Of a stretch of DNA of 59,474 nucleotides, positions 31,829 through 43,925 are shown piece by piece. The DNA is from an uncultured Erysipelotrichaceae bacterium. Its GTDB lineage: Bacteria > Bacillota_I > Bacilli_A > RF39 > UBA660. A program made the position numbers and the translations under genes. Positions within the stretch are counted from its first letter, which is position 1. Every line of letters starts with the position of its first letter. The notes beneath the pieces are model-generated. The model worked only from the letters and a program-made list of their open reading frames with translations. It ran no database searches and was not told the DNA's origin. The stretch is taken from positions 1-59,474 of the forward strand of contig CAOJNP010000004.1 in NCBI GenBank assembly GCA_948439995.1, read 5' to 3'.

Positions 31829-32965
31829 ATGAAAATCATTGAAATCAAAACAGTAGAGGATTTTGAACAATTAAGAAAATTAAATAAAAAGGAATCTGTT
31901 TTACTAAAAATTTATGATCCGATGTCTAAAGTACAACTCTCATCGATTGATTTAAAAGGATTTCGAGGAAGGATTACTGTTTCTTTTCAGAATTCAAAGC
32001 ATCCATATTACTTTAATGTAATAGTTGAAAATGAAAATGGGAACACTTTTATATTTTCCAATGTTAATAGTAGTATTATTTATCTTGATCAAGGAAATAT
32101 GAAGTTTTTTATCAGGTGCAACCGAAAATCTATGGGATAACAGAAGATGCAGATTTTAATTCTTTACCAAAAAGATTATTACCAAAAACAAAATTAATTT
32201 TGCAACAGGATCTTGTTTTAAAGCAACGAATTTTACCTTCTTTAAGATGTAATATTGGATGGTAATAATCATACTATTTACGCGACCAAAGAAATTATTA
32301 TTTCTTGGAATTAATGTGGAATAACATTTCAAAATGTTTGTTTTCAAGAAATAGATCACGTTTTACCCATTCAAAATTTTTCAGATTTAGGGAACATTTT
32401 AAAATATTCAAACGATCGATTTGTTGCATATTTAACACAAAATATTAAACAGAAATGGATTACTCCAGTTTCATTAGAAGGCTTTTATGGAACCCTTATT
32501 TTACTTGGAAACGGATATGTATTAGATCATGTGCAATTAAAAAATAATCATGAGAATTCCATTGGATTAATTTCTTCTATTTCTAATTATACCAATTTTT
32601 TTTGTAAAGATTTTCATATTGTTCATCTCACTTTTCCAAAAGCAAATAAAAAAAAGATAGGGACAATTTTAGGAGAAAAAAAGTTTATCCAAATAAGTAT
32701 GTCACTGCTCCAGGTTATATATTTCAAAATTGTAATGTAAAAAATTCTTATATTCCTAATTTTTTACAAGCAGGTGTGTGTAGGAGAAGCTGATGAATTT
32801 ATTGAATTTATTCAATGTGGTACAGAACATATTTTAGAAATTTCAAATACGAAATTTATGTCACTTCCATATTTTGATGAAAGTCATTGTTTTTGTGCTA
32901 AGCATTATGATGGAAGAAAACGAATTGTCATTCCATCAAAAAGATATCGAAAAGAAATCAAGTGA
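31829..32965 (+). pseudogene. Fragmented hypothetical gene
   Basis: Several short same-strand ORF fragments (31802-32140, 32531-32740, 32774-32965) span about 1.1 kb. Confidence 0.45.
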
Positions 32966-33008
32966 ATTTTTTAAATTGTATTACATAACTATTATTAAGG
33001 AGTGTAAT

Positions 33009-33330
33009 ATGTTTTTAATTCAATTATTTAAAAGTCTTTTCTTTTTTACTGGATCCTATTCGAATCAAGTTTTTCCGGATCCACTTAGTTTAGAAGAAGA
33101 AGAAAAGTGTATTGATTCTATGTTAGCTGGAAATTTAGATGCTCGTAATCAATTAATTGAACATAATTTAAGATTAGTAGCTCATATTGTAAAAAAATTT
33201 GAAACAAAAGATACAGATACTGATGATTTAATTAGTATTGGTACCATTGGACTTATTAAAGGAATTGATTCTTACAATAAAGAGAAAGCAACGCGAATTA
33301 CTACTTATGTAGCACGATGTATTGAAAATG
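33009..33330 (+). CDS. sigK: Pro-sigma-K, 5' half (spoIVCB-like)
   Basis: AAGGAG RBS; hydrophobic pro-sequence; LIEHNLRLVAHIVKKF, DDLISIGTIGLIK, TYVARCIEN then diverges. Confidence 0.95.
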
Positions 33331-33340
33331 CAGTACTCAC

Positions 33341-33841
33341 ATGATGGAAATTAATGTATTGATTAGTGATCTATTCTATAGATTAAAAGATACAATAGAA
33401 ACAGAAATAATAATTAAATCTACTCCTACATGGAAAATAGATTCTATAAATAAAGATAGTAGCATAGGAGAACAGATCAAGTATTATCGTAGACTTGCAG
33501 GGTATAAACAACCTGAATTAAGTTTAAAACTTGGATTTACTAGACAAGCACTCCATCATTTAGAAAATCAAGAAATGAAACTTGTAGATATTAGATTATT
33601 AAAAGGTGTTATAGAAGAACTTGGAATTGAAGATAAAATAATTATTAATGATGACTACATAAAATTTTTACTTAATGATCCATGTAAAAATATTATTAAT
33701 ATAAGAGAACGTATGAATTTAACTAGACAAGAATTTGCTAATATGTTAGAGGTGTCTATTACATCAGTTAGAAGATGGGAAAATGGCAATAGTCATATAT
33801 CTAGAAATAAGTATGATAAACTAAAAAAATGTATGAGTTAG
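33341..33841 (+). CDS. Double XRE-type HTH protein
   Basis: IGEQIKYYRRLAGYKQPELS...LEN and IRERMNLTRQEFANMLEVSITSVRRWENG. Confidence 0.85.
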   Translation: MMEINVLISDLFYRLKDTIETEIIIKSTPTWKIDSINKDSSIGEQIKYYRRLAGYKQPELSLKLGFTRQALHHLENQEMKLVDIRLLKGVIEELGIEDKIIINDDYIKFLLNDPCKNIINIRERMNLTRQEFANMLEVSITSVRRWENGNSHISRNKYDKLKKCMS

Positions 33842-34035
33842 TCGCTCGTACATTCTTTTTTTGCTTCTTCTTCAAGATGATCTAAAACTAAATTTAAAAC
33901 TTTTTCTTTAGAAGAATCATTTATTTTTAGATTTTTAATTTTTTCTAGCATAAGTGTTGCATGGAATCTAGCCACACCATTTGCTAATACTTTCCTTTCC
34001 TCAGGTGTTTGTGGTAAATTGACAAAGACTTTCAA
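33838..34035 (-). CDS. Small hypothetical protein
   Basis: AGGAGG RBS, TTG start, 65 aa. Confidence 0.6.
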   Translation of the reverse strand: MKVFVNLPQTPEERKVLANGVARFHATLMLEKIKNLKINDSSKEKVLNLVLDHLEEEAKKECTSD

Positions 34036-34082
34036 GCAAACACCTCCTATAGTAAAATATATGAATTTTATTAAGGTTAATT

Positions 34083-35635
34083 CTATTTATCTTTTCTAAC
34101 TTTAAAATAGTTAGGATCTTCTGCTTCTTTTTCTTCTACATATTCGTTTACTAGTTTATCTCCATCAATTTCTAATTCATCATCTCCAATATCATATCTT
34201 CTATGAATATCAGACATTGTTTTTCTTGTAATTTCAAATGGTTTTAAAATTACTGGTTCAATTTCACTATCAATATTAAATACTTGTACGACATTATGGT
34301 TTCCATCTACAAACATACCAGCGATTCCATCTTTTAATAAATCATGGGCATCTGTATTTTCTAATATAATTTTAGATAAAATATCATCAGCAAATCCACA
34401 AAACTTAAATTTTAAATTTGAGTTAATTTGAGGTGGTATAATATCAGCTGATAATCTTTGACTATTTATGCACAAATGCACACCAGTTGCACGACCTTTA
34501 CGAGCGATTTCTTTTAATCTTTCTATACAATCTAAATATTCTTCTTTTGCTTCTTTTGATAAGCTTTTAACATCTATATCAAATACATCAGCAGCTTCTT
34601 CTAGGACTAGAAAAATATGCTTTCTAGGTTGTACTGGATTTTTAAATTTATTAAATGAATCTATGTTATAGCATGGAAATTTTAATTCATCTGTTCTATT
34701 TAAATGGATTTCATAAACCATTTTAACCATGTTTTGAAATCCTATTATACTATTAACAATCGTACAATTTTTTAATCTTTTCCAAATTCCAGTATAATCA
34801 ATTTTCTTGCCATCATAGATAAAAAGCTCACAATTTTGTCTTAATGCCTGATAGCAAATTGATTTTTGAACTATGCTCTTACCTGCACCAGTTGCCCCCC
34901 TAATTTTTCGTGTATTAGCTTTTTTGTATTCCAAATATATGGCTCATCAAAATTATTGATTCCAAGATTAAACTTTGGACTACCAGCTTTATAAGAAATA
35001 AGAAATTTATCATTCCAATTAATAGTTTCAGGATTAGATGGATCTAATTTACTTAAATTTATTAAGACTTTATTAGAAGCATGTGGTCTAACTCCCTTAA
35101 CATATTTTTTATCTAGAAAATTTTGTATTAGTTCTTGATTATTAATAAATTCATCTGTTTTTTTACTATTCTTATAAATTAACCAAAACTCATTATTTTT
35201 ATTGTTTGGATTAGGATACATAACAATCGTTTTAGGAGCTAAACCTTTGATTTTGTCATCACTAGTTTTAGGCATTAATGCTTTAACTAATTGTTCATCT
35301 TTTTCTTCATATTTAATTGGTTTAAAAAATAATTTACATATCACTATAATAGGAATTATTGATAGAACATGGATCAAAATATAAAATAAATTTATTTTCT
35401 TTCCTAAAAGTGTATTTAGTAATGGAATTTGTAAATTAACTTTATTTATATAGGGGATTATATTTAAATTCAAATTAAACATCAATAACATATATATTGT
35501 TAAGAATAATATACAAATCTTTATAATATAGCTTTTCCAGTTATGATATATTTGTAAAAATATTGTTTCTAGCTTTCTATATATACTAGATAAACTAAAT
35601 CTCTTTTTCTTCATGATCTTTGTTCTCCTTTTCAT
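34083..35635 (-). pseudogene. FtsK/SpoIIIE (TcpA-like) membrane ATPase split by a frameshift
   Basis: Two TM helices in 34871-35635; GATGAGKS, LVLEEAAD, ARKGRATGVHL..SQR in 34083-34934. One extra G in the G6 run (C6 at 34895-34900) joins them as IHEKLGGATGAGKS. Confidence 0.8.
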
Positions 35636-36662
35636 TTATTAGTTTATTTTCTTCCATTTTATTTTTAGTAATTTCATTAGTCCAACCCTCTTTTTTAGTT
35701 TCCTTATGAACTATTATATTAGGCGATCCATCAGAATTTTTTCTAAACTCAAAAATGTTGTGAATGCGTCTACACCACGCACTATAAGTTGATGGATTCA
35801 TAACTCTATCATAAGCATAAATATTATCAAAACATTCGTTCGTACAAAAGTAAATATGTTCATACATTGCGATTTTATTATTGTACCTAGCACTTAAATT
35901 TAGTACTGGAAATCGATCAGTTAGAATCAACATTAATTCGATAGGAATTTGACCTTTAAACTCATCAAATAAGATTACAGATTGACCTGCATACCCATCC
36001 CATAACGAATTTAAATTTTGATAATTATAGATCCTAAAAATATCTTTTGCATTATATCTAGAATAGACATAGGTTGTCTTATAGGTAGCTGTCGCCCCAT
36101 ATATAAAAGTACAATCAATATTTCTAAATTCTGTTGAATATTTTTCTTTTAAATATTCTTGCCTAATATTCTCTATATCTTTTAAATGAAATAATAAATT
36201 TTCATTTTCTTCAATAATTTCTAAATTAGTTTTTCCATCTTTAATTTTTTGTAATACCTCTGCTTTTTCAGAAAGCCTTTTTTCCTTTACTGACATAGGG
36301 ATCTCTCCAGCTTCTTCAAAATCAATTAAAGTTTCGTTTTTATCTATGTACTTATCTGTTTTCATAAGATAATTTCGATTGTCAGTTGCACTTCCAAGAG
36401 CTTGTTCGATATGGGCATATTTGAATCTTTTTTTACAAGTTGAAAATCTTACAGGGCTATTACATTTAAAATAAGCATGATAATGTGGAGTTTTTTCTTT
36501 AATTCCTATTTCTTCTGATATACAAAAATAAATAGGTTTAAATTTTAAAATAGTTTCTTTAAAACTTTCTCTAGTAATGTTATATTTACTAGGATTATTC
36601 TGTGTAATTTGATAGGATCTAGATTGACTATCTTTTTTAACTTTACTAGCTATAAAAACCAC
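35595..36662 (-). CDS. CRESS/pCRESS-like rolling-circle Rep (HUH endonuclease plus SF3 helicase)
   Basis: Motif I ITQNNP, motif II PHYHAY, motif III NYLMK, Walker A-like GATATYKT, WDGY, Walker B LFDEF, motif C FCTN. Start codon is uncertain because the GTG overlaps the RBS. Confidence 0.88.
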   Translation of the reverse strand: MVFIASKVKKDSQSRSYQITQNNPSKYNITRESFKETILKFKPIYFCISEEIGIKEKTPHYHAYFKCNSPVRFSTCKKRFKYAHIEQALGSATDNRNYLMKTDKYIDKNETLIDFEEAGEIPMSVKEKRLSEKAEVLQKIKDGKTNLEIIEENENLLFHLKDIENIRQEYLKEKYSTEFRNIDCTFIYGATATYKTTYVYSRYNAKDIFRIYNYQNLNSLWDGYAGQSVILFDEFKGQIPIELMLILTDRFPVLNLSARYNNKIAMYEHIYFCTNECFDNIYAYDRVMNPSTYSAWCRRIHNIFEFRKNSDGSPNIIVHKETKKEGWTNEITKNKMEENKLINEKENKDHEEKEI

Positions 36663-36688
36663 TCCTTTATAAAAAAATTTTAAATGTC

Positions 36689-36780
36689 GCTACATTGCTA
36701 CAAACTATGCTATAAGGTAATACTATACTTATAGCATGGGGCTACGTAAGGCTTAACGCCTTACTTGCCCTCACTATAAA
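36689..36780 (-). other. Rolling-circle origin/nick site: stem-loop with TAGTATTAC nonanucleotide
   Basis: ATGCTATAAG (36707-16) and CTTATAGCAT (36728-37) form the stem; the loop reads TATAGTATTAC on the minus strand. GCTACA repeats and a second hairpin GTAAGGC/GCCTTAC are adjacent, directly upstream of rep. Confidence 0.85.
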
Positions 36781-36790
36781 TATTTAATGT

Positions 36791-36985
36791 TTAGCTATTG
36801 TTAGACATTTTGATCTTTTGATTATGATTGTTTCCATAAGTCATAATTGCAAGTTCAATTTCAGCAGAGTCTAGAAATACTTTCTTTTCGTATGTTGGAG
36901 TTAATTGAATAATTACTACTACATATTCATTTCCAGTTTTCTCACTCACACGTGTTTCAATTCTACATGGTAGATCTAATTTCAT
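36791..36985 (-). CDS. Small protein upstream of rep (possible ssDNA-binding protein)
   Basis: AAGGA RBS; SEKTGNEY beta-hairpin-like motif. Function inferred from position only. Confidence 0.5.
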   Translation of the reverse strand: MKLDLPCRIETRVSEKTGNEYVVVIIQLTPTYEKKVFLDSAEIELAIMTYGNNHNQKIKMSNNS

Positions 36986-37259
36986 ACTTATATTTTCCTT
37001 TCTACATTTAGCTTACCTTGTTGGGATCAAGTTAATATAAACTAAATGACTTTATTTATTTTTCCCTAATTTCCTTATTCAAGAGAATTGTTTAGCTACT
37101 TTAAATATGTTATAATATCTCTTGAAATCAAGCTTTTTTATAGGCCTATATCTCTGCTTGATAGCTATATCTTACCATAGGCGAATATGGTAAATATATT
37201 TGTAAAAATGGGTATTTATTAAATTTATTTTGGTATATATAAGAAAGGAGTTCTATTTG

Positions 37260-37850
37260 ATGTTAGAAATTAAAAGAAAAGAAAGAATAAAAGAAATATT
37301 TTCTATTGATGAAGATAAAAAAGAACATGTAGATAGTATAAATCATGCAGTAAAAGAGGTTTCTAGAAATCGTGTTAGATACTTACGAAAAAGTTTAGGA
37401 TTAAGTGTTGGCGAATTTTTAGATGAAATTGATGGCTTTAGTGAAGAAACTCTACAATCTATTGAAAAAGGAAATTGTGGCTTAACTTTAGATAAAGCTT
37501 TAAAAATTTCTCAAAAACATGAGGTTAGTTTAGATTATTTATTTGGAATAAGTGATTATATGAGCGAAAATGAAATAGCTTTAGAAAAAGCATTTGAATA
37601 CATTTTTGATATTCAATTTCCTTTATTCGATAATGAATCAGATCCTACACTAGTAGTAAATTTCTCTACAAATAAATATTTATTAGAATACTTTTATCAT
37701 AAAAAATTACTAGAACACCAAAAAGAAAATAAAGAGATTACAATAGAAGAATTTGATCTTGAAATTGAAAATTTAAGAAATAAATATTTTGAATTGATTA
37801 AGTCACCTATAGTAAAAAATGTAAAGTATAATTGCACTAAAATTGATTAA
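37260..37850 (+). CDS. XRE family transcriptional regulator
   Basis: RVRYLRKSLGLS...IEKG...VSLDYLFG. Confidence 0.85.
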   Translation: MLEIKRKERIKEIFSIDEDKKEHVDSINHAVKEVSRNRVRYLRKSLGLSVGEFLDEIDGFSEETLQSIEKGNCGLTLDKALKISQKHEVSLDYLFGISDYMSENEIALEKAFEYIFDIQFPLFDNESDPTLVVNFSTNKYLLEYFYHKKLLEHQKENKEITIEEFDLEIENLRNKYFELIKSPIVKNVKYNCTKID

Positions 37851-37899
37851 TATTTAATTATAAAAAAATTATAGACTTTTTGATCTATAATTTTTATTT

Positions 37900-38367
37900 T
37901 TATCCTATTCTAATTAAGCAACCATCTTTACTAGCAATTCTAATATCACCAAATTCAGAGCAATCAGGATCAGACAAATTATACGTATATGTAGAAATCA
38001 TGTATATATCGGCTTTTCTATAATCATATCCATAGTAAAATAATCTTTCAGTATTCCAATACATTTTTATATCTCCTACACATAGCAAAGATAAACAATT
38101 GCCAAAACTAAATCTTTCTTCTACACAATAATAAACAACATGATCATATTCATTTTCAAAATCAGAAACTAATTTTTTATATTCAGGTAATAAATCTAAA
38201 TCAATCAGTTCATTATTTCTACACACTTTTGTTTTTCCTTGCTCAAAATCATTTAAGATAATAGGATCTAAATTAAATGTTTTTGATAACTTTTTTAATC
38301 TTCTTTTTGCTTCTTCTATTTGTTGTTCTTTTGATATATTTCTACTCATGATACCAATTCCTTTCAA
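37900..38367 (-). CDS. Hypothetical protein
   Basis: 155-aa ORF ending SEFGDI...LIRIG. Confidence 0.65.
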   Translation of the reverse strand: MKGIGIMSRNISKEQQIEEAKRRLKKLSKTFNLDPIILNDFEQGKTKVCRNNELIDLDLLPEYKKLVSDFENEYDHVVYYCVEERFSFGNCLSLLCVGDIKMYWNTERLFYYGYDYRKADIYMISTYTYNLSDPDCSEFGDIRIASKDGCLIRIG

Positions 38368-38596
38368 TTATTTTATTTATCAACATTAACTAGTATTTCG
38401 TTGACAAATAAATGGTATCATAAGTATTAATGGTAAATAAATTTTGAAAATAGGTATTTATTAAAAATGTTTTGGTATATTTTAAAATTTATATGTTTTA
38501 TAAAAAAATTATGGATCAATTTATAAATCCATAACTTTTTTTCATGCAGTAACTAACGAAATTTAAAATCATAATCTATTTAAACATTAATAAATA

Positions 38597-38866
38597 TTAA
38601 AGTTTACGATCAACAAAAAACTCTTTAATGTCTATTTCTAAAACACGAGAGATCCTATATAGTACGGCGATACTAAAAGATTGTTGAACTTTAGTAGATT
38701 CTATATTACTAATTAGACTATGGCTTAAATCACATTTTTCTGCAAGTTGTTCTTGTGTCATTTTCCCATACGAACTATATTTACTATTATTATGAAGTCT
38801 AAAATATTTTATATTCTTACTAACTAATTCATAAATATATCTGTCATCTTCAGGACTAAAATTCAT
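38597..38866 (-). CDS. XRE family HTH regulator
   Basis: MTQEQLAEKCDLSHSLISNIES. Confidence 0.88.
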   Translation of the reverse strand: MNFSPEDDRYIYELVSKNIKYFRLHNNSKYSSYGKMTQEQLAEKCDLSHSLISNIESTKVQQSFSIAVLYRISRVLEIDIKEFFVDRKL

Positions 38867-39016
38867 ATTATCACCACCTATATATATTTTCTCATTTATA
38901 GTAGATGTTTATAATATTCTTATTATAGATAAATGTTCTATAATAAGTGGCTTTCTGTGAAAAGTTATGTTATACTTATATTGAACTGATGGAGTTTAAA
39001 AAGTGAGAGGTGAAAA

Positions 39017-39694
39017 ATGATAAGTAGAATACTTAAAAAACTATTAAAGGCATTTTGCTATTTTATGATACTTGGACTTATATTCCAATATTTTCCTTTA
39101 TTATACATTCCTATATCGTTGTACTTAATTTTTAAATTATATAAAAATGATTTTTTTACTAAATTTTTAATAAAATATAAAATAAAAAAAGAATATAAAA
39201 ACATAAAATTTATAAATAAAATTAATTTATATGAAAATTTCAAAGAATATAACGAAGAAAATTTTGATAAAAATATATATGAATACAAAAAACACTTTAT
39301 ATGTTTATCAAAAAATAAGGTATCTATAATTGGCTATAACTCTATAAAAAATGAATTATATAAAAAAGATTTTGAGATCAATAATATAGAAGAAATATAT
39401 TTTGAAAATTCAACTGATGTTTATACATATACTACTTTTGATACAAAAACATATTATAGAACGATAACTACTCAATATAATTCATATACTGAAACTGTTA
39501 ATGAGCGAACACCTACTACAGCGAAAGGTTATAGAAAAGATTTTGGCTATGTAAATATTATATTTCAAGATATAGAAGAAAATGGAATAATGTTTGACTT
39601 TGGAAGACATAAAGATAGATATACAATACCTATAAAATTTAGAAGAATTTGTAGAAGAATTGGAATAAAAAATATATCAAAAATTCAATTATAA
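39017..39694 (+). CDS. Hypothetical membrane protein (element cargo)
   Basis: GAGGTG RBS; N-terminal hydrophobic segment. Confidence 0.65.
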   Translation: MISRILKKLLKAFCYFMILGLIFQYFPLLYIPISLYLIFKLYKNDFFTKFLIKYKIKKEYKNIKFINKINLYENFKEYNEENFDKNIYEYKKHFICLSKNKVSIIGYNSIKNELYKKDFEINNIEEIYFENSTDVYTYTTFDTKTYYRTITTQYNSYTETVNERTPTTAKGYRKDFGYVNIIFQDIEENGIMFDFGRHKDRYTIPIKFRRICRRIGIKNISKIQL

Positions 39695-39715
39695 AAAAGA
39701 AAGAGGTAAAAGAAA

Positions 39716-40249
39716 ATGAAAAAGATAAAATATTTAAGTCTAATTATGATAATAGCTTTCATGCTAACAGGTTGTGGTGGCAGTTCTGAAAAGGTAGTTT
39801 TGGCTAATGTAGTACATCCTACATCAGCAGAATACAATTATTATACGTTTAACGAAGTGAAAAATTTTGATAAAGTTTCTGTTAGTGGAATTAAATTAAA
39901 ACATAAAGAAAATAAAGTAAATAATAATAAAACACTTGGTGGAGATGTGGAATATGAATTTACTATAAAAAATACATCCAAAGAAACGATAGATAATATT
40001 GGTTATATGCTTTTCTTAAAAGATTCTAATGGAAGATCATTTGCAATTAGAGGAAAAGAAACAATAAGTTTAAAAGCAGGAGAAAAAACAAAAATAAAAG
40101 TATCTAGTATGTGGTGTAAAGATGATTGCGATAAATCAACTACTCAAATGCTTTTTATAGATGATTACAACAAAGATTATGCTACTTTAAACGTATATCA
40201 ATTAATTAGTACAAATTCAGATCAAACAATTAATACATCTGAATTATAA
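39716..40249 (+). CDS. Lipoprotein (element cargo)
   Basis: Lipobox LTGC; Ig-like beta pattern (FTIKNTS...SLKAGEK). Confidence 0.8.
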   Translation: MKKIKYLSLIMIIAFMLTGCGGSSEKVVLANVVHPTSAEYNYYTFNEVKNFDKVSVSGIKLKHKENKVNNNKTLGGDVEYEFTIKNTSKETIDNIGYMLFLKDSNGRSFAIRGKETISLKAGEKTKIKVSSMWCKDDCDKSTTQMLFIDDYNKDYATLNVYQLISTNSDQTINTSEL

Positions 40250-40269
40250 AAAGAAAGGAAGAATAGAAA

Positions 40270-41076
40270 ATGAAAAATGTAAAATATTTAAGTTTAATTA
40301 TGATTATGGCTTTAATGCTAACAGGTTGTGGAGATAAAGAAAATTCTAGTGGTGGAATTGATAATGTAAGTAATAAGAAAGTAGAATATTATAGTGAAGC
40401 TGAAACAATTTATTTTAATGCAGAAACAGGAAAGATATGTAATGATTATAAAGAAGAAAATAGCGAACGTTCAAATACTAATGGTTGTTTAAAATGGTAT
40501 TTATATAGTGATAATGGAGATAAAACTGTTAATCTTCTTTTAGATCATAATATATCTAACTCTATTGCTTGGAATACTAGAGAAAATCTAGTAAATGGTC
40601 CAAGTGATGAATTACTAACAACATTAAAAGAAAATACTAAAAAATGGACTGGTGTAGATGATCGAAAAGATCAATATACATTAAATTTGGGAGAAATCAA
40701 TTACACAATAGATTATAAAGGATATAAAGCAAGATTAATCTCTGGAGAAGAAATCAAAGAAATTGTAAAAGATACCTCATCAAATCAAAATGGAGATATT
40801 TATTTTGACAAATCTACTTGTAAATTTGATAGAGACTCTACTCCTAAATGCCAATATGGATGGTTATTTGATAGAACACAAAGCGATTGTAAAAATTATG
40901 GTTGCTTCAATGAGGGTGGTAGTTCTTATTGGACTAGTACAGCTTATTCAAATGATAGTTATAAAACAGCTTATAGAGTTTATTTAGGATTCTTAAGTCC
41001 TACTACTATTGATTCAAAAGATATTAGTATTGGAATTAGACCAGTAATAACAATAGATAAATCTCTAGTTAAATAA
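40270..41076 (+). CDS. Lipoprotein with a DUF6273/CLec-like C-terminus (element cargo)
   Basis: Lipobox LTGC; LLLDHN, ARLIS.EEI, YWTST, GIRPVI. Confidence 0.7.
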   Translation: MKNVKYLSLIMIMALMLTGCGDKENSSGGIDNVSNKKVEYYSEAETIYFNAETGKICNDYKEENSERSNTNGCLKWYLYSDNGDKTVNLLLDHNISNSIAWNTRENLVNGPSDELLTTLKENTKKWTGVDDRKDQYTLNLGEINYTIDYKGYKARLISGEEIKEIVKDTSSNQNGDIYFDKSTCKFDRDSTPKCQYGWLFDRTQSDCKNYGCFNEGGSSYWTSTAYSNDSYKTAYRVYLGFLSPTTIDSKDISIGIRPVITIDKSLVK

Positions 41077-41192
41077 TGATAGAATTGGACTTTATAAAAT
41101 AAAAGTCTTTTTCTTTTGCTTTAATCTATCTATTATTTCACTTTTGTGATATACTATATTAAGTTGATACATGTTGGAAAGGAATTGAAATT

Positions 41193-42944
41193 ATGAAAAG
41201 TACGAATAAGAAAAAAGATGATCGTAAAATAGCAATCTACTCTAGAAAATCAAAATATACAGGTAAAGGAGAAAGCACCAAGAATCAAATAGAAATGTGT
41301 AAAAAGAAAATCGCTTTTCAATTTGATGATATAGATTTAGATAATGATATTATTGTCTATGAAGATGAAGGATTTACTGGTTATAACATGAATCGCCCTG
41401 CTTTTCAAAAAATGTTAAAAGATATTAGAGATAATAAAATTAAAATCATAGCTTTTTATAGATTAGATAGAATTAGTCGTAATGTAACTGATTTTAGTAA
41501 TTTAGTAACAGAATTAGATAATTATGGAGTTGTTTTTTTATCAGCTACTGAAAATATAGAAAGCGTAACCCCTAGTGGTCGTGCTATGATGTTTATGAGT
41601 TCTGTATTTGCTCAATTAGAAAGAGATACTACTGCTGAACGTATAAGAGATAATATGATAGATCTTGCTAAAACTGGTCGTTGGCTTGGGGGGAATACTC
41701 CTACAGGTTTTGATTCAGAACAAATAGAACATATTACAATAGATGGAAAAAAACGTAAATTATTTAAACTTACAGAAAATGAAGAAATGCCTATTATAAT
41801 TACTCTATTTAAAAAAATGTTAGAATTAAAATCTTTAACTAAATTAGAAACTTATACGATTCAACATGATATAAAAACTAAAAATGATAAGTATTTTTCA
41901 CGTTGGGGATTAAAAAATATATTAACGAATCCTGTTTATGCTTATGCTGATAAAGACACACTAGAATACTTTAAAACGTTTGATGTAGAGATTTATGCAG
42001 AAGAAAAAGATTTTAATGGGGATCATGGTTTAATGGTTTACAATAAAACAGAACACAAAGGAAAAAATAAAGTCGTTATCAAAAGAGATGTAGAAGATTG
42101 GATTATTTCTATTGGAAAACATAAAGGAGTTGTTAGTGGTAAAGAATGGGTAGAAATTCAAGAATTAATCCTAAAAAATAGTGATATGAGGTATCGCAAA
42201 CCATCTGCTAGTAATTCTCTACTTTCAGGGCTTATAAGGTGTTCTCATTGTGGATCTTTCATGCGACCTAAACTAAAAAATAAAACTATTAGTGAAGATG
42301 ATAGAAGAAGATTCGATTATATGTGTGAGTTAAAAGATAAAAGCAGAAAACAAAAGTGTCAATGTAAAAATATTAATGGATTAGAAGCAGATGATTTAGT
42401 TATGGAAAAAATAAAAGAACTTGCTAATCCTAAATCTCTATTCTATCAATCATTAAAAGAAATATCTAAAAATACATTTACAGAAGAATATAAAAACAAT
42501 GAGGAGTTAAAAGCTTTAAGAACATCACTTACAAAAAATGAAAAAGATATATCTTCCTTACTCGATAAAATAAAATATGTAGATATTGATTTATTAGATG
42601 ATATTTCTAAAGAAATAAAATCTTTAAAAGAACAAAATTTAAAGATAGAAAAACAAATAAAGGATCTAACAAATACCAATTATGAAGAAATAAACGATAA
42701 AGATACTGCTGACCTTTTATTAAACGTTTTAGATACCTATTTTAACGAATTTAACGAATTAGACTTAAATACCAAAAGAAACCTAATAAAGCTTCTTGTA
42801 AGCTCTGTAACAACTGATGGAGAGGATATTACAATTAACTTTATAGGAGCTAGAACACTACAAGATAAAGATGTATGTGCTTGTAATAAAACAAGTGATG
42901 TATTAAGAATATCAGGATTTCCAACAGGTGAAGACAGCAAATGA
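41193..42944 (+). CDS. Large serine recombinase (SpoIVCA-like)
   Basis: IYSRKS, DEGFTG...RPAF, RLDRISR, FAQLER, LLSGLIRCSHCG zinc ribbon. Its stop codon overlaps the right att site. Confidence 0.96.
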   Translation: MKSTNKKKDDRKIAIYSRKSKYTGKGESTKNQIEMCKKKIAFQFDDIDLDNDIIVYEDEGFTGYNMNRPAFQKMLKDIRDNKIKIIAFYRLDRISRNVTDFSNLVTELDNYGVVFLSATENIESVTPSGRAMMFMSSVFAQLERDTTAERIRDNMIDLAKTGRWLGGNTPTGFDSEQIEHITIDGKKRKLFKLTENEEMPIIITLFKKMLELKSLTKLETYTIQHDIKTKNDKYFSRWGLKNILTNPVYAYADKDTLEYFKTFDVEIYAEEKDFNGDHGLMVYNKTEHKGKNKVVIKRDVEDWIISIGKHKGVVSGKEWVEIQELILKNSDMRYRKPSASNSLLSGLIRCSHCGSFMRPKLKNKTISEDDRRRFDYMCELKDKSRKQKCQCKNINGLEADDLVMEKIKELANPKSLFYQSLKEISKNTFTEEYKNNEELKALRTSLTKNEKDISSLLDKIKYVDIDLLDDISKEIKSLKEQNLKIEKQIKDLTNTNYEEINDKDTADLLLNVLDTYFNEFNELDLNTKRNLIKLLVSSVTTDGEDITINFIGARTLQDKDVCACNKTSDVLRISGFPTGEDSK

Positions 42945-43311
42945 AATCTTGATGTATTTTCGTGGAAATAAAAAAAATGGAAACAATGTCAGTTTGAATG
43001 ATTCTATCGGTTATGATAAAGATGGAAATGAAATTAATTTAATTGATGTAATTAAAGATAATTCTATTGATATTGCTGATACTTTGCATACTAAACATAA
43101 TTTAGAATTATTGAATCATTATTTGAAAGATTTGAGTCCTAGAGAACAAGAAATAATTAAGAAAAGATATGGACTTTGTTTGGAAAAGGAACAAACTCAA
43201 AAAGAAATTGCCAAAGAATTAGGAATTTCTAGAAGCTATGTTTCTCGAATTGAGAAAAGAGCTTTAATGAAAATATTAAAAGAATTTTTAAAAAGTAAAA
43301 ATGATCTTTAA
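42939..43311 (+). CDS. sigK: Sigma-K, 3' half (spoIIIC-like)
   Basis: NEILMYFR, IGYDKDGNEI, TQKEIAKELGISRSYVSRIEKRAL. Confidence 0.95.
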
Positions 43312-43421
43312 GAATCTTGAAACATTGATTTTTTCAATGTTTTTTTGTGTATTTTTTTCAATGCTTCGTTTACGAAACAAGTTTCTCATGATATAATATT
43401 TTAGAAATGTAGGTGTCATCG

Positions 43422-43925
43422 ATGGATTCTTTTATTCCAGATATTTATCAAAAAAGCATTTTTACAATTGATTATAAAAATTTAAAAAAAACAGGAATCA
43501 AATGTATTCTTTTTGATTTAAATGATACGATTGCTCCAGAGAGTATGTCTGTTCCAGATAAAAAATTAAAAGATTTATTTGCATATTTGGAAGGATTAAA
43601 ATTTAAACTTATTATTTTATCAAATGCCAGTAAAAATAGAGTAGAACCTTTTAAAGAAAAATTAAATGTCGATTCGGCTTTTCAAAGTGGAAAACCAAGC
43701 TTACATAAATATGAAAAAATTTTAGATTTATATCGCTTTGATGTTCATGAAATAGTTTGTATTGGAGATCAATTATTTCCAGATATTTATTGTGCAAATA
43801 AAATGGGATTTCGAAGTATTTTAATCAATGCTATTAGTAATAAAAAAGCAACGTTTTTAAATCGTTTTTTGTTTCAGCAATTAAGAAAAAAAGGAATATT
43901 AGAAAAAGGAGTTTATTATGAATAA
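43422..43925 (+). CDS. yqeG: YqeG family HAD IIIA phosphatase
   Basis: FDLNDT, LSNA, KP, IGDQLFPDI; upstream of yqeH. Confidence 0.85.
   Translation: MDSFIPDIYQKSIFTIDYKNLKKTGIKCILFDLNDTIAPESMSVPDKKLKDLFAYLEGLKFKLIILSNASKNRVEPFKEKLNVDSAFQSGKPSLHKYEKILDLYRFDVHEIVCIGDQLFPDIYCANKMGFRSILINAISNKKATFLNRFLFQQLRKKGILEKGVYYE

Follow-up and report, generated by a model that had tools for sequence, protein, structure and literature searches.

A sigK-intervening element with a probable rolling-circle plasmid backbone in an uncultured mouse-gut bacterium

Introduction

What kind of DNA separates the two halves of a sporulation sigma factor gene, and can it leave again? The question is raised by a 59,474-nt stretch of contig CAOJNP010000004.1 (the window), which belongs to an uncultured mouse-gut bacterium with a genome, labelled G000, of 1.14 Mb in 52 contigs (90.6% complete). 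In the window the gene sigK is interrupted by an insert of 9,613 bp that carries genes for a large serine recombinase, a rolling-circle replication protein (Rep), a membrane ATPase of the FtsK/TcpA kind and several regulators (Table 1). The reading favoured here, with a probability of about three in four, is that of a sigK-intervening ('skin') element that is built on an integrated rolling-circle plasmid of the pCRESS kind or on an integrative mobilizable element (IME) rather than being a prophage.

Structure of the interrupted gene

Both pieces of the gene are recognized as SigK. Positions 33009-33344 match Sigma70_r2 and the NCBIfam SigK model NF004471 (150.9 bits, profile positions 9-116 of 235), and positions 42928-43311 match Sigma70_r4 and the same model (156.2 bits, profile positions 112-233); for each of the two halves the SigK model outscores the SigE model. 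The halves are co-oriented in the open reading frame (ORF) map and in the domain scans. In BLASTN comparisons, homology to the intact sigK genes of relatives breaks at 33330 and restarts at 42939, with a 5-nt overlap, AAATG. Joined in silico at this core, the halves continue in frame through C-I-E-N-E-I-L-M, the same as ...TGTATTGAAAATGAAAT... in the six intact sigK genes of the same genus that were displayed. The insert (33331-42943, one copy of the core included) splits the codons ...CIEN/EILM... at sigK nt 322. The junctions, attL ...TTGAAAATG/CA... and attR ...CAAATG/AAAT... (the slash marks the break), are common to all elements compared. In the predicted circle the arms of an inverted repeat would stand 18 nt apart, centred on the AA of the core, a layout that a serine-integrase attP would be expected to have (compare PMC5595907).

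The initial annotation had described sigK as split and precisely restorable, and the two SigK-model halves, the shared core and the in-frame join identical to intact relatives agree with that description. Across the 11 genomes of the genus, a survey that the same annotation had proposed, sigK is full-length in seven, cut by a contig end in one, ambiguous in one (65% complete) and split in two (G000 and G008). An intact sigK elsewhere, named there as a point that would speak against its reading, was not found in the G000 genome at its stated completeness; the only stronger SigK-type match (257.6 bits) is sigE, directly 3' of a gene for a SpoIIGA-like membrane protease. The locus has an interrupted coding sequence with co-oriented halves that can be restored in frame, and an element-encoded large serine recombinase at one junction, both of which mark a sigK-intervening element; the prophage-like gene content of the classical skins is missing (PHROGs). 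An assembly artefact was ruled out, as an independent assembly of run X1 spans all 11.5 kb with 0 differences and as identical junctions are present in G008, G064 and metagenome loci.

Recombinase and candidate directionality factor

The recombinase matches Resolvase (2.1e-31), Recombinase (2.9e-13) and Zn_ribbon_recom (2.3e-11) as well as the integrase family phrog_95 (1.6e-99), and its TGA stop codon is made up of the TG of the attR core and the first base of the sigK 3' half. Its lineage (40-100% identity) is present in 18 of 401 genomes of the family, and a sigK-type 3' half lies directly downstream in 13 of 19 loci, the other six including one cut by a contig end. In G107 a 58%-identical recombinase (C1:343381-345063) has no downstream sigK half in the stretch fetched, and split sigK halves lie on other contigs (C3:135889-136233; C4:3-314); with three recombinase candidates scored per genome, another copy is possible.

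The small protein orf65 follows the recombinase in its distribution. Family matches occur in 16 of the 401 genomes, 13 of them among the 18 recombinase-positive genomes and three (one weak) among the other 383, a count that presumes identical genomes in both searches (the genus tallies agree). In 11 genomes the match and the recombinase share a contig; in G200 and G201 (contig C35) the orf65 homologue is found immediately upstream of the recombinase gene, and in G232, as in the window, some 500 nt separate it from the 5' half of sigK. A model of the recombinase-orf65 complex, built from alignments of 15 and 5 rows, respectively, scored 0.64, the best of three controls scoring 0.00; among reference pairs, 116 of 157 solved complexes and 2 of 215 mismatched ones reach this score. 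At least 59% of the contacts are shared between runs, and the predicted local distance difference test (pLDDT) value of the partner is at least 73. The modelled contacts of orf65 involve recombinase residues 394-429 and 497-556, which correspond to the region right after the zinc-ribbon domain (343-408) and to the C-terminal tail. Serine-integrase directionality factors bind there, at the base of the coiled coil. On the complex model and the co-occurrence, orf65 is a likely candidate for the recombination directionality factor (RDF) of the recombinase.

Across four elements the gap upstream of orf65 hardly varies and is better conserved than the adjacent coding sequence. About 27 nt ahead of the start codon it holds CATATATT, a sequence that resembles the CATA-type -10 element of mother-cell sigma factors; the probability of meeting such a motif by chance within 50 AT-rich bases is estimated at about 0.1.

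Rep and replication origin

Rep scores just above the Pfam thresholds of Viral_Rep (26.6 bits; cut-off 26) and RNA_helicase (21.8 bits; 21.5), and its family profile matches the full-length Rep of porcine circovirus 2 (PCV2; 7LAR) with an E value of 1.6e-22, both domains being covered. An alignment of 20 members displays motif I (..ITxNNP), the HUH motif (H-Y-H), Y-x2-K, Walker A, Walker B and the arginine finger. Walker A (residues ~189-196) reads G-A-T-A-T-Y-K-T, with Y in place of the usual second G; within the nearest clade of Reps the form G-x4-Y-K-T persists to 53% identity, and remoter homologues have G-x4-G-K-T. In the plasmid collection Rep has relatives at only 25-29% identity (a Bifidobacterium plasmid and a phytoplasma plasmid).

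A hairpin with the nonanucleotide TAGTATTAC in its loop is located 63 nt upstream of rep. The 101-nt origin region folds at -17.5 kcal/mol (z = -4.98), and none of 200 shuffled sequences folds as well; the 8-mer motif by itself shows no enrichment across the window (10 copies, 8.2 expected). At five of the 10 Rep loci examined TAGTATTAC lies in a loop upstream of rep. The stems of G000 (10 bp) and G064 (12 bp) are near-identical, those of G205 and bajarodino virus 56 (8 bp each) are unrelated, and the loop of bajarodino virus 13 sits on a stem of only 4 bp. G008 has a degenerate TAGTTATAC and no stem, and the exact motif is absent at four more distant loci of the 10. A stem-loop with a nonanucleotide of the (T/N)AGTATTAC type adjoining rep, as in viruses with circular Rep-encoding single-stranded (CRESS) DNA, is combined with a Rep that has an HUH endonuclease and a superfamily 3 (SF3) helicase domain, as in pCRESS integrated plasmids. 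The CRESS-like rep and the nonanucleotide origin of the initial annotation are both upheld by these data.

Relatives, transfer and selection

The same element occupies the same place in sigK of G064, a genome of another genus of the family, where it is spread over two contigs. Between G000 and G064 the proteins are 94-96% (Rep), 96% (recombinase), 93% (HTH166), 92% (orf65), 90% (orf155), 100% (HTH89) and 90% (C part of the FtsK-like protein) identical, with lower values for HTH206 (70%) and the N part of the FtsK-like protein (72%). For the two halves of SigK the identity is as low as 65% and 62%, and the flanks show no alignment between the nucleotide sequences. The synonymous divergence (dS) between the two genomes is 0.16-0.38 for the element genes and 1.1-1.26 for sigK. 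Because the identity of the element is far above that of SigK, an incongruence that forms the main evidence, the comparison indicates a recent horizontal transfer between genera into the same sigK site. SigK C halves of 69% (L071), 59% (G201) and 59% (L073) identity also adjoin recombinases that are 95-96% identical.

G008, of the same genus as G000, has a collinear element of 11.6 kb with other cargo. The stretch corresponding to 36731-37160 is missing from it, so that it has neither orf64 nor the left hairpin arm of the origin, and its HTH166 gene is disrupted; since orf64 is present in G064, in G381 and, at 46% identity, in an element of G205 outside sigK, this state is regarded as a deletion. 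A separate acquisition by G008 was considered and dropped: at the protein level the element diverges more than SigK, but dS is 0.24-0.73 for the element and 0.8-1.2 for sigK. As far as these values go, the pair G000/G008 leaves vertical descent and transfer undiscriminated.

The ratio of nonsynonymous to synonymous divergence (dN/dS) was 0.06-0.10 for Rep, 0.06-0.09 for the recombinase, 0.17-0.20 for the C part of the FtsK-like protein, 0.16-0.19 for orf65, 0.17-0.21 for orf155 and about 0-0.02 for HTH89; the G000-G008 row of HTH206 was left out of the comparison (misaligned coordinates, a stop inside). Judged by these low values, the core genes are under purifying selection and are maintained by it.

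Rep homologues were found in 10 of 301 genomes of the family. In G205, G250, G241 and G114 sigK is intact and Rep/FtsK-like elements are located elsewhere. The Rep family was found in 0 of 10 other genomes with the recombinase lineage, an empty result that shows little in that it had no positive control. G000, G008, G064 and G381 carry both the sigK-specific recombination unit and the Rep backbone. Because recombinase loci with no Rep match and Rep elements outside sigK both occur, the two thus appear to be separate modules, in line with the proposal in PMC6957869 that mobile elements exchange int-attP-rdf units. At locus L040 (G241:C4:6000-25999), in a genome with intact sigK, Rep is 42% identical to that of the window, yet HTH89 is 94% and the 177-aa lipoprotein 78% identical; regulator and cargo modules are apparently exchanged between backbones.

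In G381 (L065 = C14:7000-24000; L066-L069 = starts of contigs C13, C19, C4 and C16) three SigK/SigE-like genes are split at ...ENEILM. On C14 a complete Rep-type element splits a divergent paralogue with halves 29% and 35% identical to the SigK of the window, and the contig ends at which the true sigK (67% and 61%) and a further paralogue (45% and 38%) break off have identical element termini, which points to a second element type in two copies. Co-binned strains are a possible source of the triple split (contamination 1%).

Whether the host still uses the gene bears on a different explanation, in which a mobilizable element has inactivated sigK in a host that neither needs nor makes sigma-K, so that no developmental excision takes place. 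It would accord with the very small genome (1.14 Mb), with the failure to find an excision junction in contigs, with the decay of element parts in the window copy and in G008, and with the state of the gene just upstream of sigK (31829-32965, plus strand), a pseudogene with six in-frame stops, all TAA, which aligns over its full length (42% identity) with an intact 381-aa ORF of G008. The sigK halves, however, contain no stops or frameshifts at the 13 recombinase-adjacent loci (12 are full-length; that of G015 ends with the contig after 35 residues), and between two split alleles their dN/dS is 0.045 and 0.014. The recombinase and orf65 are likewise under purifying selection. G000 retains spoIVA (646 bits) and spoIIGA-sigE intact, together with a SpoIIID-like match of 55.6 bits, which is below the cut-off. 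The same design is functional in Bacillus subtilis and Clostridioides difficile (PMC5025042). Loss of sigK to a dead-end insertion is therefore improbable. Just downstream of spoIIGA-sigE, on G000:C9 (L001:325-1290, minus strand), lies a 321-aa reverse-transcriptase-like ORF (YADD motif, retron/group II type).

Coupling protein and gene content

The gene for the FtsK/TcpA-like ATPase has lost 1 nt in the window, at a run of six G (~34895) just upstream of Walker A, which yields ORFs of 254 and 283 aa. The frame is continuous in G008, G064 and G381. The intact protein of G008 measures 516 aa, has two N-terminal hydrophobic (transmembrane) helices, matches Pfam FtsK_SpoIIIE (24.7; cut-off 24) and phrog_1358 (2.4e-34) and is not Zot-like. 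The FtsK-like ATPase of the initial annotation is hence present, and intact in relatives, but frameshifted in the copy of the window. Runs X9 and X14, from other studies, contain a 99.4%-identical variant of the element (48 differences and 1 gap over 7,771 nt), in which a base change and an inserted base at 34895 bring the FtsK frame back. This variant, also from mouse gut, matches the window only from 33316, and in X9 the match ends at 41594, within the recombinase gene, so that the host flank and the 3' part of that gene differ by more than 10%.

A PHROGs scan of the insert found none of the phage structural families (capsid, tail, portal, terminase, lysis), in agreement with the initial annotation; the matches were to regulators, an integrase and the FtsK-like protein only. 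The capsid gene of a CRESS-DNA virus is missing, and the lack of viral structural genes together with site-specific integration between attachment repeats is what characterizes pCRESS integrated plasmids. An integrase, an HUH 'relaxase' and an FtsK/TcpA-like coupling protein with no type IV secretion system (T4SS) of its own are the components of the IME class with Rel_PF02407 and TcpA; the tyrosine integrase and excisionase module of that class is replaced by a serine recombinase.

A degenerate prophage of a filamentous phage (inovirus), which would make the element a prophage-like skin after all, could be suspected from Rep, whose closest named relatives in the phage collection are six 'bajarodino virus' inovirus records from rodent faeces (34-37.5% identity), from the TAGTATTAC hairpin that one bajarodino virus has as well, and from their similar size range of 5.7-10 kb. 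Against it, the insert encodes no Zot/pI morphogenesis ATPase, its ATPase being of the FtsK/SpoIIIE type, and no coat-like small membrane proteins; orf64 and orf65, as read from their sequences, have no hydrophobic helix, and Reps of this kind reside mostly in integrated plasmids devoid of viral structural genes (Kazlauskas 2019, PMC6668415). An inoviral origin is very unlikely.

Least probable is a self-transmissible element like the actinomycete integrative and conjugative elements (AICEs; e.g. pSAM2), in which double-stranded DNA is moved by the FtsK/TraB-like translocase on its own and Rep serves only to amplify the excised circle: the gene set (integrase, directionality factor, rolling-circle Rep, membrane FtsK-like ATPase, regulators) does parallel that of AICEs, and there is a weak NCBIfam match to plasmid_TraB (E 1.1e-4), but TraB-type transfer is known only from mycelial actinomycetes. 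The precedent in Firmicutes is a TcpA-type coupling protein with putative relaxases of the Viral_Rep type in mobilizable elements (PMC5357655), and the genome itself has genes of a type IV secretion system. This set (L082, G000:C10:10000-30000) comprises a VirD4-like coupling protein of 743 aa (3.9e-55), a TraG P-loop/VirB4-like ATPase of 595 aa, a TrbL_4 protein of 708 aa and an M15 cell-wall hydrolase of 729 aa, and is a possible helper for mobilization.

Four genes, orf64, rep, the ftsK-like gene and orf65, form a row on the minus strand. A search of the ESM Atlas with orf155 gave no usable match. The positions of all features are listed in Table 1.

Table 1. Features of the interrupted sigK locus (positions in the window)
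Feature	Position	Strand	Basis or remark
sigK 5' half	33009..33330	+	pro-sequence-like N terminus; in the integrated state the ORF continues to a stop at 33342-33344
attL core AAATG	33326..33330	+	
attP inverted repeat, right arm	33337..33350	+	pairs at 12 of 14 positions with 42918-42931
HTH166, two XRE-type helix-turn-helix (HTH) domains	33341..33841	+	starts 10 nt past the core
Terminator-like hairpin at the end of HTH166	33828..33854	+	only one found in the region
orf65 (65 aa), candidate RDF	33838..34035	-	
Intergenic gap upstream of orf65	34036..34082	-	47 nt, holds CATATATT, -10-like
FtsK/TcpA-like membrane ATPase gene	34083..35635	-	broken into ORFs 34871-35635 and 34083-34934
rep, HUH endonuclease and SF3 helicase, circovirus/pCRESS type	35595..36662	-	Pfam, profile search
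Origin hairpin	36707..36737	-	10-bp stem (36728-36737 and 36707-16), 11-nt loop with TAGTATTAC at 36717-36725
Second hairpin, G+C-richer, beside the origin hairpin	36739..36770	-	
orf64, conserved small ORF upstream of origin and rep	36791..36985	-	deleted in G008
HTH206, XRE-type regulator	37230..37850	+	divergent to the orf64-rep-ftsK-orf65 string
orf155, conserved backbone gene	37900..38367	-	no usable ESM Atlas match
HTH89, XRE-type regulator	38597..38866	-	98-100% identical across elements
Variable cargo: 225-aa membrane protein, two lipoproteins (177 and 268 aa)	39017..41076	+	L-T-G-C lipobox
Large serine recombinase (Resolvase, Recombinase, Zn_ribbon_recom)	41193..42944	+	adjoins attR
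attP inverted repeat, left arm	42918..42931	+	read from sequence
sigK 3' half	42939..43311	+	domain scans, BLASTN
attR core AAATG	42939..42943	+	

Excision and proposed mechanism

In the mother cell, the recombinase and orf65 would recombine attL with attR, which would restore sigK and release a 9.6-kb circle, as described for the skins of B. subtilis and C. difficile (PMC5025042, PMC6957869). Two routes to the expression of orf65 may be envisaged, one as the last gene of the orf64-rep-ftsK-orf65 string, divergent to HTH206, and one from the conserved sequence just upstream of it that resembles a CATA-type promoter. If the string were de-repressed in vegetative cells, excision could follow, after which Rep would nick the hairpin and start rolling-circle replication, transfer, or both. 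For transfer, the FtsK/TcpA-like protein would act as the coupling protein to a helper T4SS, the role proposed for it in IMEs that pair Viral_Rep with TcpA (PMC5357655). Excision, itself unobserved, and its need for sporulation are both inferred.

The initial annotation had held the element to be possibly still mobilisable. At the level of the family this is supported by proteins of 90-100% identity in sigK alleles of 59-69% identity and by dN/dS values of 0.06-0.2, but the coupling-protein gene of the window copy is frameshifted, because of which this copy is probably excision-competent but transfer-defective.

Several observations count against a working skin element. The Logan contigs (assembled) of four runs, X1, X4, X14 and X9, were compared with positions 32400-43900, a contig-level form of the junction check suggested at the outset, and contained neither the attB junction (33330 to 42939) nor the circle junction (42943 to 33331); this is weak evidence, since assembled contigs drop rare forms. 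An attP or free circular form was likewise found neither among 11 metagenome loci nor in IMG/VR, where the recombinase has only a 29% relative; all three close loci among the 11 returned are integrated beside sigK. Some copies of the element are decaying, as in G008, and the independent assembly of X1, the probable source run, shows the same ftsK frameshift as the window. The P-loop of Rep is unusual in its Y for the second G. The pass of the complex model may partly mirror likeness to solved integrase-RDF complexes, and the co-occurrence of orf65 and recombinase was counted over related genomes, which are non-independent samples. The promoter assignments rest on likeness to a consensus, and a sigma-70 promoter scan was uninformative, with fewer sites (77) than expected in shuffled sequence (88.5).

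Contigs of three runs (X1, X14 and X4) join 43726 back to 38489 via 28 extra letters (one base different in X4); the matching sides of this joint are probably short, and it may stem from another organism. The other contig joints listed had sides of only 20-25 nt, AT-rich, and were regarded as spurious.

The start of HTH166 overlaps the stop of the truncated sigK ORF (ATGA). Because it lies only 10 nt past the core and overlaps that stop, the integrated gene can hardly be transcribed from elsewhere than the sigK promoter. In the predicted circle the recombinase ORF loses its stop and reads in frame into HTH166, which adds 170 residues in G000 and G064; in G008, with its disrupted HTH166, the read-through ends after 35 residues. 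An extension of the skin reading, speculative and rather unlikely when taken as a whole, is that the integration state reads the developmental programme of the host. HTH166, lacking space for its own promoter, would be transcribed from that of sigK, through which the element would sense sigK transcription in the mother cell and trigger its excision, and the resulting 753-aa fusion of recombinase and HTH166 could prevent the circle from integrating again or switch it to replication and transfer. The target recognized by the recombinase would be a sequence conserved in several SigK/SigE-like paralogues, with the three sigma genes of G381 split at the same site.

Comparison with known systems

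The skins of B. subtilis (SpoIVCA with Skr) and C. difficile (CD1231 with CD1234) likewise interrupt sigK and carry a large serine recombinase at one edge. Their excision requires a small directionality factor (64-72 aa) and restores the gene in frame; the candidate here, orf65, has 65 aa. The sigma-K of B. subtilis and that of the window both have a pro-sequence-like N terminus. The skin measures about 48 kb in B. subtilis and about 15 kb in C. difficile. Both are described as prophage-like (PMC5025042, PMC6957869), as the initial annotation had stated, whereas the element of the window has 9.6 kb, a rolling-circle plasmid backbone and no phage genes. Phage PhiS63 inserts at sigK nt 427, a location similar to those of skinCd and skinCt (PMC3442830), and differs in this from the site at nt 322 used here; the skin elements treated in these reports are prophage-like or functional phages (PMC5025042, PMC3442830).

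A non-viral counterpart is gin, which intervenes in another gene, gerE, of Bacillus cereus (Abe et al. 2017, PMC5595907). It is excised by the serine recombinase GirC and a small factor, GirX, its att site is an imperfect inverted repeat around a central AA, as here, and horizontal spread is suspected by its authors. As described there, gin lacks a Rep, an origin and a coupling protein and has no known route of transfer; the element of the window has a replication and mobilization module and an intergenus transfer documented by sequence.

The pCRESS integrated plasmids (Kazlauskas, Varsani, Koonin & Krupovic 2019, PMC6668415) share with it a CRESS-related Rep with HUH and SF3 domains, the lack of structural genes and site-specific integration in Firmicute chromosomes; one example has a XerD-type integrase, unlike the serine recombinase here. 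The likeness of Rep to pCRESS2 was judged by eye against the supplementary alignment of that paper, in the supplements of which the terms 'sigK' and 'serine recombinase' have 0 occurrences each. Streptococcal IMEs with Rel_PF02407 (Viral_Rep) and TcpA (Coluzzi et al. 2017, PMC5357655) show the same pairing, as the initial annotation had stated, and are compact, with an integrase and no T4SS of their own. Unlike the present element they use tyrosine integrases with an excisionase and have no developmental gene as target; only two such IMEs were found in that study, and the relaxase function is putative there too.

A literature search that combined sigK with mobilizable or rolling-circle elements returned no description of such a skin, although PDF supplements may hold more. 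In the literature found, the sigK-intervening elements are prophages or their remnants, and the only published non-viral gene-intervening element, gin, sits in gerE. The window suggests that the role of a skin can also be taken by a rolling-circle plasmid of the pCRESS kind or a mobilizable element, that the unit of recombinase and RDF is a portable module on different backbones, present in 18 of 401 genomes of one bacterial family, and that such elements still move between genera, hitting the same codons of a developmental sigma factor. The element would thereby link the literatures on sporulation DNA rearrangement, on integrative mobilizable elements and on the plasmid ancestry of CRESS-DNA viruses, and it offers parts that can be put to the test: the att sites, orf65 as candidate RDF, the origin hairpin and the gene fusion that excision would create.

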